Shown here piece after piece: positions 9,737 through 9,883 of a stretch of DNA of 12,558 nt. Source of the stretch: a virus; IMG/VR virus record IMGVR_UViG_3300044639_001767; one strand, written 5' to 3'. Below the pieces are notes generated by a model. It had not been told where the DNA came from. It saw nothing but the letters and a program-made list of their open reading frames with translations, and did no database searches. The stretch's first letter is position 1. Each line of letters begins with the position of its first letter. The position numbers were made by a program, and so were the translations under genes.

Positions 9737-9883
9737 TCAAAATTCCATGTTTTCGATTGCCATGACCCATTTTTGGATATCAATTTCATAAAACCCTGCA
9801 CAGTTGACATCCACATGTTGTGCCTGTGCCTGAGATACGCCTGCTGAAAGGATCACAGCAGCTAGAGCCAGAATTTTCTTCAT
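9737..9883 (-). CDS. Small secreted peptide precursor of 48 aa with a Sec-type signal peptide (MKKILALAAVILSAGVSQAQA | QHVDVNCAGFYEIDIQKWVMAIENMEF). It is not in the ORF track because it is below the length cut-off.
   Basis: Translated by hand from the minus strand. AAGGAA lies 7 nt upstream of the ATG at 9881-9883. The sequence has a classic n-h-c signal peptide with an AxA cleavage site. Its stop abuts the TilS start (ttt TGA TAG ATG), suggesting translational coupling. Confidence 0.5.
   Translation of the reverse strand: MKKILALAAVILSAGVSQAQAQHVDVNCAGFYEIDIQKWVMAIENMEF

Follow-up and report, generated by a model that had tools for sequence, protein, structure and literature searches.

A signal-peptide-bearing 48-codon ORF as a probable deletion scar in a variable genomic slot of a large phage

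Surroundings and export signal of the 48-codon ORF

The window (i.e. the whole stretch of 12,558 nt that was analysed; IMG/VR virus record IMGVR_UViG_3300044639_001767) is phage DNA, featuring a tail-spike-like protein with a Peptidase_S74 chaperone domain, homing endonucleases and several PHROG matches. On its minus strand, a gene for a 243-aa protein is followed by an ORF of 48 codons, a TilS-like PP-loop gene and an MVP-like gene (Table 1). The frame of this ORF, running from ATG to TGA as announced in a preliminary description of the DNA, was borne out, and its product reads MKKILALAAVILSAGVSQAQAQHVDVNCAGFYEIDIQKWVMAIENMEF. Searching Pfam with this 48-aa product returned no match and, since the window contains 93 ORFs of at least 40 aa, the length of the ORF by itself carries little weight. 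The ORF had moreover been presented as a missed gene, whereas the exact 48-aa protein has already been predicted by gene callers and is found in 99 database blocks (NCBI, JGI, ENA and Logan).

Table 1. Features in and around the 48-codon ORF (window coordinates)
Feature	Position	Strand	Details
MVP-like gene, 829 aa	6601–9090	minus	MVP_shoulder E=3.5e-19; Vault_3
TilS-like PP-loop gene, 200 aa	9131–9733	minus	N-terminal catalytic domain only; PF01171 E=1.7e-30; TIGR02432
48-codon chimeric ORF	9737–9883	minus	ATG 9881–9883; TGA 9737–9739
Codons 27–48 plus stop of the ORF	9737–9805	minus	last 22 codons of R2K (residues 249–270); tblastn 100% over 22 aa
Deletion junction	9796–9806	minus	one surviving copy of the 11-nt direct repeat CAACTGTGCAG; encodes N-C-A in both parents
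Codons 1–29 of the ORF	9797–9883	minus	codons 1–29 of the 120-aa secreted-protein gene (P0004); tblastn 100% over 29 aa plus DNA alignment
Predicted Sec/SPase I-type signal peptide MKKILALAAVILSAGVSQAQA	9821–9883	minus	codons 1–21; inherited from sec120
Shine-Dalgarno hairpin UGGUUC-CAAG-GAACCA	9888–9903	minus	contains AAGGAA 9891–9896; completed by A-to-C at 9890
Stem-loop GGGGCAAAUCGUUUGCCCC	9904–9922	minus	between the 243-aa gene and the 48-codon ORF; no U-tract in sense direction
243-aa gene, function unassigned	9965–10696	minus	left border of the slot; 97–100% identity in all structural variants

Between 12372 and 6601, every gene is located on the minus strand, and the genes are separated by gaps of 3–84 nt. 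A promoter scan found no sigma-70-like site between the 243-aa gene and the 48-codon ORF, and the stem-loop in this gap (–12.5 kcal/mol, z –2.6) was flagged as terminator-like on the plus strand only. Given the closely spaced same-strand genes, the lack of a promoter-like site and a stem-loop without a sense U-tract, the ORF is presumably co-transcribed with its neighbours. The stem-loop was unchanged in all structural variants of the locus. Situated between two co-directional genes, it (GGGGCAAATCGTTTGCCCC) carries a T-rich tail on the antisense strand only, a 75%-similar copy of it is located at 11065–11088, and its candidate roles are RNA processing, RNA stability or bidirectional termination.

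The TilS-like protein matched the TIGR02432 profile (lysidine_TilS_N) at 122.5 bits, for a cutoff of 93.6, and the C-terminal (tRNA-binding) domains of TilS are absent. The TGA of the 48-codon ORF is followed by a TAG (9734–9736) and then by the TilS ATG (9731–9733), so that the stop does not overlap the TilS start, as had been described, but is separated from it by a spacer of 3 nt. This close spacing without overlap agrees with the translational coupling to TilS proposed earlier. The same proposal included MVP, and this part did not hold, since 40 nt separate the TilS stop (9131–9133) from the MVP ATG (9088–9090), which is preceded at a distance of 9 nt by an AAGGAG of its own. MVP is thus co-directional with TilS, and not tightly coupled to it. 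Many IMG/VR viral contigs, up to 518 kb long, carry TilS relatives at 37–51% identity (L001–L080); those in GTDB were located on MAG contigs that gave no usable host information for this lineage. Among the loci compared, MVP was found only in the 15 closest ones; viral MVPs have been reported in gut phages (2023 preprint, 10.1101/2023.11.10.566534).

The N-terminus of the 48-aa product was judged, together with 21 members of the protein family described below, by a heuristic n/h/c and –3/–1 analysis. The n-region contains K2 and K3 (net +2 ahead of the h-region), the h-region ILALAAVILSAGV reaches a best 10-residue Kyte-Doolittle mean of 2.92 with residues 4–24 uncharged, and the c-region (A19-Q-A21, followed by Q22) offers small residues at –3 and –1 and no Pro at +1. 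The mature part of 27 aa would indeed contain a single Cys, as C28 is the only one in the entire product. The lipobox pattern L-[AS]-[GA]-C was not found in the 48-aa product, which instead reads L-S-A-G-V without a Cys, and a lipoprotein (SPase II) signal was thereby ruled out.

Two parent genes and the junction between them

The 48-codon ORF is a chimera of two genes that are both complete in intact relatives. Its first 29 residues are the same as those of a 120-aa secreted protein (P0004, referred to as sec120). The corresponding family counts at least 21 proteins (P0004 and P0006–P0025), all of 115–127 aa and from large uncultured phages, in which the 20 homologues of sec120 (at 53–75% identity) share the conserved cysteines C28, C38, C88 and C110 and an IPGGPIxPGGTS motif. 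The AlphaFold model of sec120 is a beta-sandwich (pLDDT 81). No match to sec120 was obtained in PHROGs, NCBIfam or Pfam, and no relatives were found in the GTDB representative genomes.

In all but one of the 21 family members, the heuristic called a small-x-small site (mostly A-x-A) at the aligned position. For the remaining protein, P0024, neighbouring sites were listed, yet its sequence reads AQA followed by Q at that position as well. The residue after the cleavage site is Q in most members and A or E in three. The alignment further revealed that the n/h/c pattern and the cleavage site persist while the residues of the signal drift, and this retention of the architecture amid residue drift is the pattern of evolution of a functional signal peptide. 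The Sec signal with cleavage after AQA that had been noted for the 48-aa product is therefore sound, both in its own n/h/c features and in the pattern kept across the ~120-aa family.

The 48-aa product shares with this family the signal peptide and the QHVDVNCA stretch, including the invariant N27-C28, and its identity to P0004 over 29 residues indicates that the 5′ part of the ORF demonstrably descends from a real gene. It differs in that some 90 of the ~99 mature residues are missing, along with all of the four conserved cysteines but C28, the IPGGPIxPGGTS motif and the whole predicted beta-sandwich. With only residues 1–29 of its 48 aa aligning to proteins of 115–127 aa that have a complete mature domain, it is a fragment and no functional member of the sec120 family.

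In four divergent relatives, the full-length sec120 gene was found in unrelated neighbourhoods (with an acetyltransferase, PRPP synthetase, RNA ligase or small unknown genes), and in these four it was never located beside TilS or beside the second parent gene. The placement of a secreted peptide at the head of a TilS–MVP operon, which had been pointed out as unusual, is then a by-product of the deletion described below.

The second parent gene encodes a 270-aa R2K-clade ATP-grasp protein (referred to as R2K), which in intact relatives matches PF14243/PF18299 over residues 107–260 as well as phrog_7313 (E=2e-65), and which terminates in EYNCCNCAGFYEIDIQKWVMAIENMEF directly before its stop codon. 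Full-length homologues (at least 80% query coverage, ~265 aa) were present in 63 isolate phage records, most of the R2K-carrying isolates being large phages of Gram-negative hosts (Ralstonia, Brevundimonas, Caulobacter, Rhizobium, Erwinia and Xanthomonas). Enzymes of the R2K clade have been predicted to modify proteins as peptide ligases in phage–host conflicts (Burroughs, Zhang and Aravind 2015, PMC4431377; PMC7824862), and have been noted in jumbo phages (PMC7824862). The last 22 residues of the 48-aa product are identical to the R2K C-terminus of the intact relatives. However, only residues 249–270 of 270 are kept, the product matches neither the R2K_3 (PF14243) nor the R2K_2 (PF18299) profile, and its catalytic domain is gone, leaving the phage of the window without this predicted protein-modifying ligase.

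Both parental parts meet in the single copy of the 11-nt repeat CAACTGTGCAG. Specifically, positions 9796–9806 of the window align twice in the intact locus L088 (4078–4088 and 5106–5116, 1,028 bp apart) and twice in the decayed locus L094 (3845–3855 and 4132–4142, 287 bp apart). The segment absent from the window thus amounts to 1,028 bp when compared with the intact form, and to 287 bp when compared with this nearest, already decayed relative. The two repeat copies correspond to codons 27–29 of sec120 and codons 249–251 of R2K, and because both are read as Asn-Cys-Ala, the reading frame runs on from the start of sec120 into the end of R2K. The chance of such an in-frame outcome after a deletion at this repeat is roughly one in three. 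The so-called mature peptide consequently consists of 8 residues of sec120 and the C-terminal 19 residues of a cytoplasmic enzyme, and the ORF as a whole retains 24% of sec120 and 8% of R2K, with no catalytic or structural core.

Chimeric deletion remnants as such are an already known kind of thing. The 48-codon ORF resembles the microhomology deletion remnants of phages and bacteria in having one 11-nt repeat at its junction, flanks from two genes and near-clonal carriers. What sets it apart is that an export signal is linked in frame to part of a cytoplasmic enzyme, by which it mimics a small secreted-peptide gene.

Structural states and distribution of the slot

An exact-pattern scan for the conserved hairpin yielded no matches in IMG/VR and a single JGI metagenome contig, and variant loci were instead retrieved by means of the exact TilS and 243-aa proteins. 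Comparison of the related loci revealed four structural states between the 243-aa gene and TilS: intact (variant A), endonuclease-invaded (variant D) and two successive deletions (variants C and B, the latter being the window).

Variant A (L088–L093, with 92–97% flank identity to the window) comprises the 243-aa gene, sec120, R2K, TilS and MVP. Its genes are tightly packed, the sec120 stop overlapping the R2K start (TAATG) and the R2K stop being located 3 nt before the TilS ATG. In variant D (L095–L100), a 1-nt deletion (CCTGGC-GTCCC) frameshifts sec120 to 78 aa, an opposite-strand HNH_3 endonuclease takes the place of R2K residues 1–222, and the R2K stump carries a premature TAA. This endonuclease (L095 4370–5278, minus strand) has 302 aa and a C-terminal zinc ribbon. 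Variant C (L094 and L104) has both the frameshift of D and the sequence of D at the left end of the R2K stump, while ~1.1 kb including the endonuclease is gone. The TilS of variant C is identical to that of the window, its flanks are ~99.3% identical in nucleotides, and the R2K tail and TGA-TAG stop retained in variant B are the same as in variant C. Sister lineages have thus independently inactivated sec120 and R2K by a frameshift, by insertion of an HNH endonuclease and by another deletion.

This series is akin to gene turnover by homing endonucleases, in that the slot carries an HNH_3 gene in variant D and that variant C resembles D after loss of the endonuclease. In contrast, the slot of the window is devoid of an endonuclease, and a link between endonuclease turnover and its own deletion is suggested by the similarity to variant C.

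Two further observations were made on variant D. Its upstream flank shares 99% identity with that of the window, against only 91% for its TilS, suggesting a recombinant mosaic. In addition, an unrelated 378-aa gene (L095 6259–7395) follows TilS where the window has MVP, so that the TilS–MVP pairing is itself variable.

Related contigs were also inspected for conservation of the 48-codon reading frame, which proved not to be conserved, as they carry the 120-aa and 270-aa genes or decayed versions of these. The deletion variant itself was represented by 14 loci (retrieved via three proteins), which differed from the window by 0–3 SNPs over ~4 kb, with at most one per gene and none in the ORF. 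Such a small number of SNPs among the carriers indicates that the deletion event was recent. Because the carriers are near-clonal, conservation of the ORF is uninformative on selection and dN/dS is impossible; a frame kept across diverged relatives under purifying selection, as in conserved small proteins, was not encountered, the frame occurring in near-clonal carriers only.

A word-indexed search of 5.8 billion proteins with the 48-aa query yielded three matches, namely the identical 48-aa protein (P0001, annotated as hypothetical on many contigs), a 78-aa protein sharing residues 1–31 only, and a 66-aa protein sharing residues 27–48 only. Likewise, no family for the 48-aa product emerged when 1.84 billion representative proteins were searched exhaustively with phmmer; besides the ORF and the fragment of its N-terminal parent, the matches were limited to two of a repeat-type, multi-stretch kind in long proteins. 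No match was obtained when the entire window was compared with isolate phage genomes by megablast. In the 80 IMG/VR loci with TilS relatives at 37–51% identity, the ORF, sec120, R2K and the 243-aa gene were all absent within 4 kb, and these loci are therefore of no use as a conservation test. Finally, the exact 48-aa protein was listed in 99 database blocks versus 29 for the 120-aa protein, making the deleted form the most often sampled one. This is compatible with a selective advantage, and equally with lineage abundance or sampling.

The ribosome-binding site of the ORF had been rated as strong. AAGGAA is located 7 nt 5′ of the ATG; in the deletion variant alone, however, this element is buried in a perfect 6-bp hairpin. 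The hairpin has a folding energy of –7.9 kcal/mol, compared with –2.4 kcal/mol and no Shine-Dalgarno hairpin in all non-deleted variants. The C at position 9890 is private to the deletion variant (all other variants having A) and is the sole leader substitution private to it. The A-to-C change makes GGTTCCAAGGAACC a perfect palindrome (GGUUCCAAGGAACC) around the Shine-Dalgarno element, and might reflect compensatory down-tuning of a useless exported peptide, or chance.

Origin and possible use of the ORF

We consider it very likely that the 48-codon ORF is the scar of a deletion within this variable slot, in the genome of a large phage, i.e. a chimeric remnant instead of a dedicated peptide gene. 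The ancestor would have carried the 243-aa gene, sec120, R2K, the TilS N-domain protein and MVP in tight packing, and recombination or replication slippage between two copies of CAACTGTGCAG would have removed everything between them. The most economical history would run from the intact form through endonuclease invasion and frameshift (D-like) and loss of the endonuclease (C) to the 287-bp repeat-mediated deletion (B), in which case the immediate ancestor was probably already degenerate and C-like, to judge from the sequences compared. A direct deletion of 1,028 bp from an unsampled intact ancestor is a possible alternative route, and the sites that are diagnostic of the route (from A versus from C) fall within the deleted segment. 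On either route, the ORF is a by-product. Two points count against a scar: the deleted form is the most frequently sampled one, and the fusion stayed in frame with a signal peptide still competent for export, an outcome with a prior of roughly one in three.

With its ribosome-binding site and signal peptide retained, the ORF is probably still translated and its product exported. The pre-peptide, if translated, would enter the Sec pathway and be cleaved after Ala21, and the resulting acidic fragment of 27 residues with one orphan Cys, which is probably functionless, would most likely be degraded. The 3-nt spacing between the ORF and TilS appears to be inherited from the R2K–TilS junction, and the only residual use that seems plausible for the ORF is a passive one, in that it may still deliver ribosomes to the weakly SD-equipped TilS start.

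A stronger version of such a use, which we regard as rather unlikely, is that the ORF serves as a leader whose peptide is irrelevant and whose translation, ending 3 nt before the TilS ATG, is needed for TilS expression by termination-reinitiation. This need would explain why the 3′ end of R2K (given as at least the last 144 nt) is kept directly upstream of TilS in all structural variants, and it would fit with the merely weak SD-like GGAA before the TilS ATG and with a stop-start spacing that is the same as that of R2K and TilS in intact loci. However, the premature TAA in variant D makes the called upstream ORF of 52 aa end 40 nt before a TilS gene that is still intact, and retention of the R2K 3′ end may just mark where TilS-sparing deletions can end.

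A functional peptide was the reading put forward in the preliminary description, which saw in the ORF a dedicated secreted-peptide gene that could serve as a membrane-targeted effector, in superinfection exclusion or in host signalling. Such a gene finds no support in the relatives, which carry two full genes or decayed versions of them. In its remaining form, the proposal would be that of a newly born functional micropeptide, acting as an exported periplasmic or membrane effector (e.g. in superinfection exclusion or host signalling) and causing the spread of the variant. The intact ribosome-binding site, signal peptide and open frame are in line with this, as is the frequent sampling of the variant. 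On the other hand, the mature part combines 8 residues of a beta-sandwich protein with 19 residues of a cytoplasmic ATP-grasp C-terminus, three of the four conserved cysteines and every conserved motif are gone, homologues are limited to near-clonal copies, and both parent genes decay in sister lineages. Moreover, the sole variant-specific substitution nearby is the one burying the Shine-Dalgarno element in a hairpin, which speaks mildly against selection for expression of the ORF. Taken together, we deem a functional micropeptide improbable. Slightly more improbable still is its most specific form, a very recent gene birth in which a deletion between two decaying genes happened to place a working export signal on a 19-residue helix-like tail, and in which the acidic 27-aa periplasmic peptide or its reactive Cys gave an advantage that led to the dominant sampled genotype.

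Small exported phage proteins with a Sec signal, such as morons and superinfection-exclusion factors, are conserved genes with families of their own. The 48-aa product is like them in its small size, its N-terminal signal peptide and its being phage-encoded, and differs from them in having no homologues beyond its two parent genes.

Since the direction of an indel is formally undefined from two sequences alone, the polarity could also be reversed, with the 48-codon ORF being ancestral and ~1 kb containing sec120 and R2K having been inserted. This would require two complete members of already existing families (sec120 of 115–127 aa and R2K of ~265 aa) to have arisen at once from the insertion, with the ends of the host ORF serving as their N- and C-termini, and this very remote scenario is effectively refuted by the sec120 and R2K family data. 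An assembly artefact, in which two 11-nt repeats were collapsed by the assembler, might be suspected from the location of the junction in a repeat, but has a negligible probability and was rejected, because assemblers use k-mers far longer than 11 nt (several of the records carry k141 in their contig names), because an identical junction was recovered from numerous samples and no fewer than four independent sources (ENA, JGI, Logan and an NCBI MAG), and because these contigs share the linked private SNP at 9890.

The deletion scar that we favour calls for caution, as a small ORF may owe its good ribosome-binding site, textbook signal peptide and close spacing to the next gene to nothing but the joined ends of two deleted genes, and only comparison with close relatives exposes such scars. 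It also marks the surroundings of the TilS–MVP pair as a hot spot of gene turnover, and shows that phages in nature can do without the secreted beta-sandwich protein as well as the R2K ATP-grasp ligase. Should the remnant be functional, it would offer a dated example of micropeptide birth by fusion, although nothing here points that way.

Elsewhere in the window, a 93-nt direct repeat of 95% identity was found at 10504–10596, inside the 243-aa gene, and at 12446–12538, in a 50-aa ORF (12399–12551, minus strand). Its copies bracket a saccharopine-dehydrogenase-like gene (10969–12372, 467 aa) and a 53-aa ORF, and may stem from duplication of part of a gene or mark the edge of an inserted cassette. 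Besides this saccharopine-dehydrogenase-like gene, the accessory genes of the window include those for a protein with a malonyl-CoA-decarboxylase-like stretch (4504–4998), a PTH2-like peptidyl-tRNA hydrolase (3594–4061) and an HNH homing endonuclease (5708–6280), which together with TilS suggests a cluster themed on translation or metabolism in a large phage.
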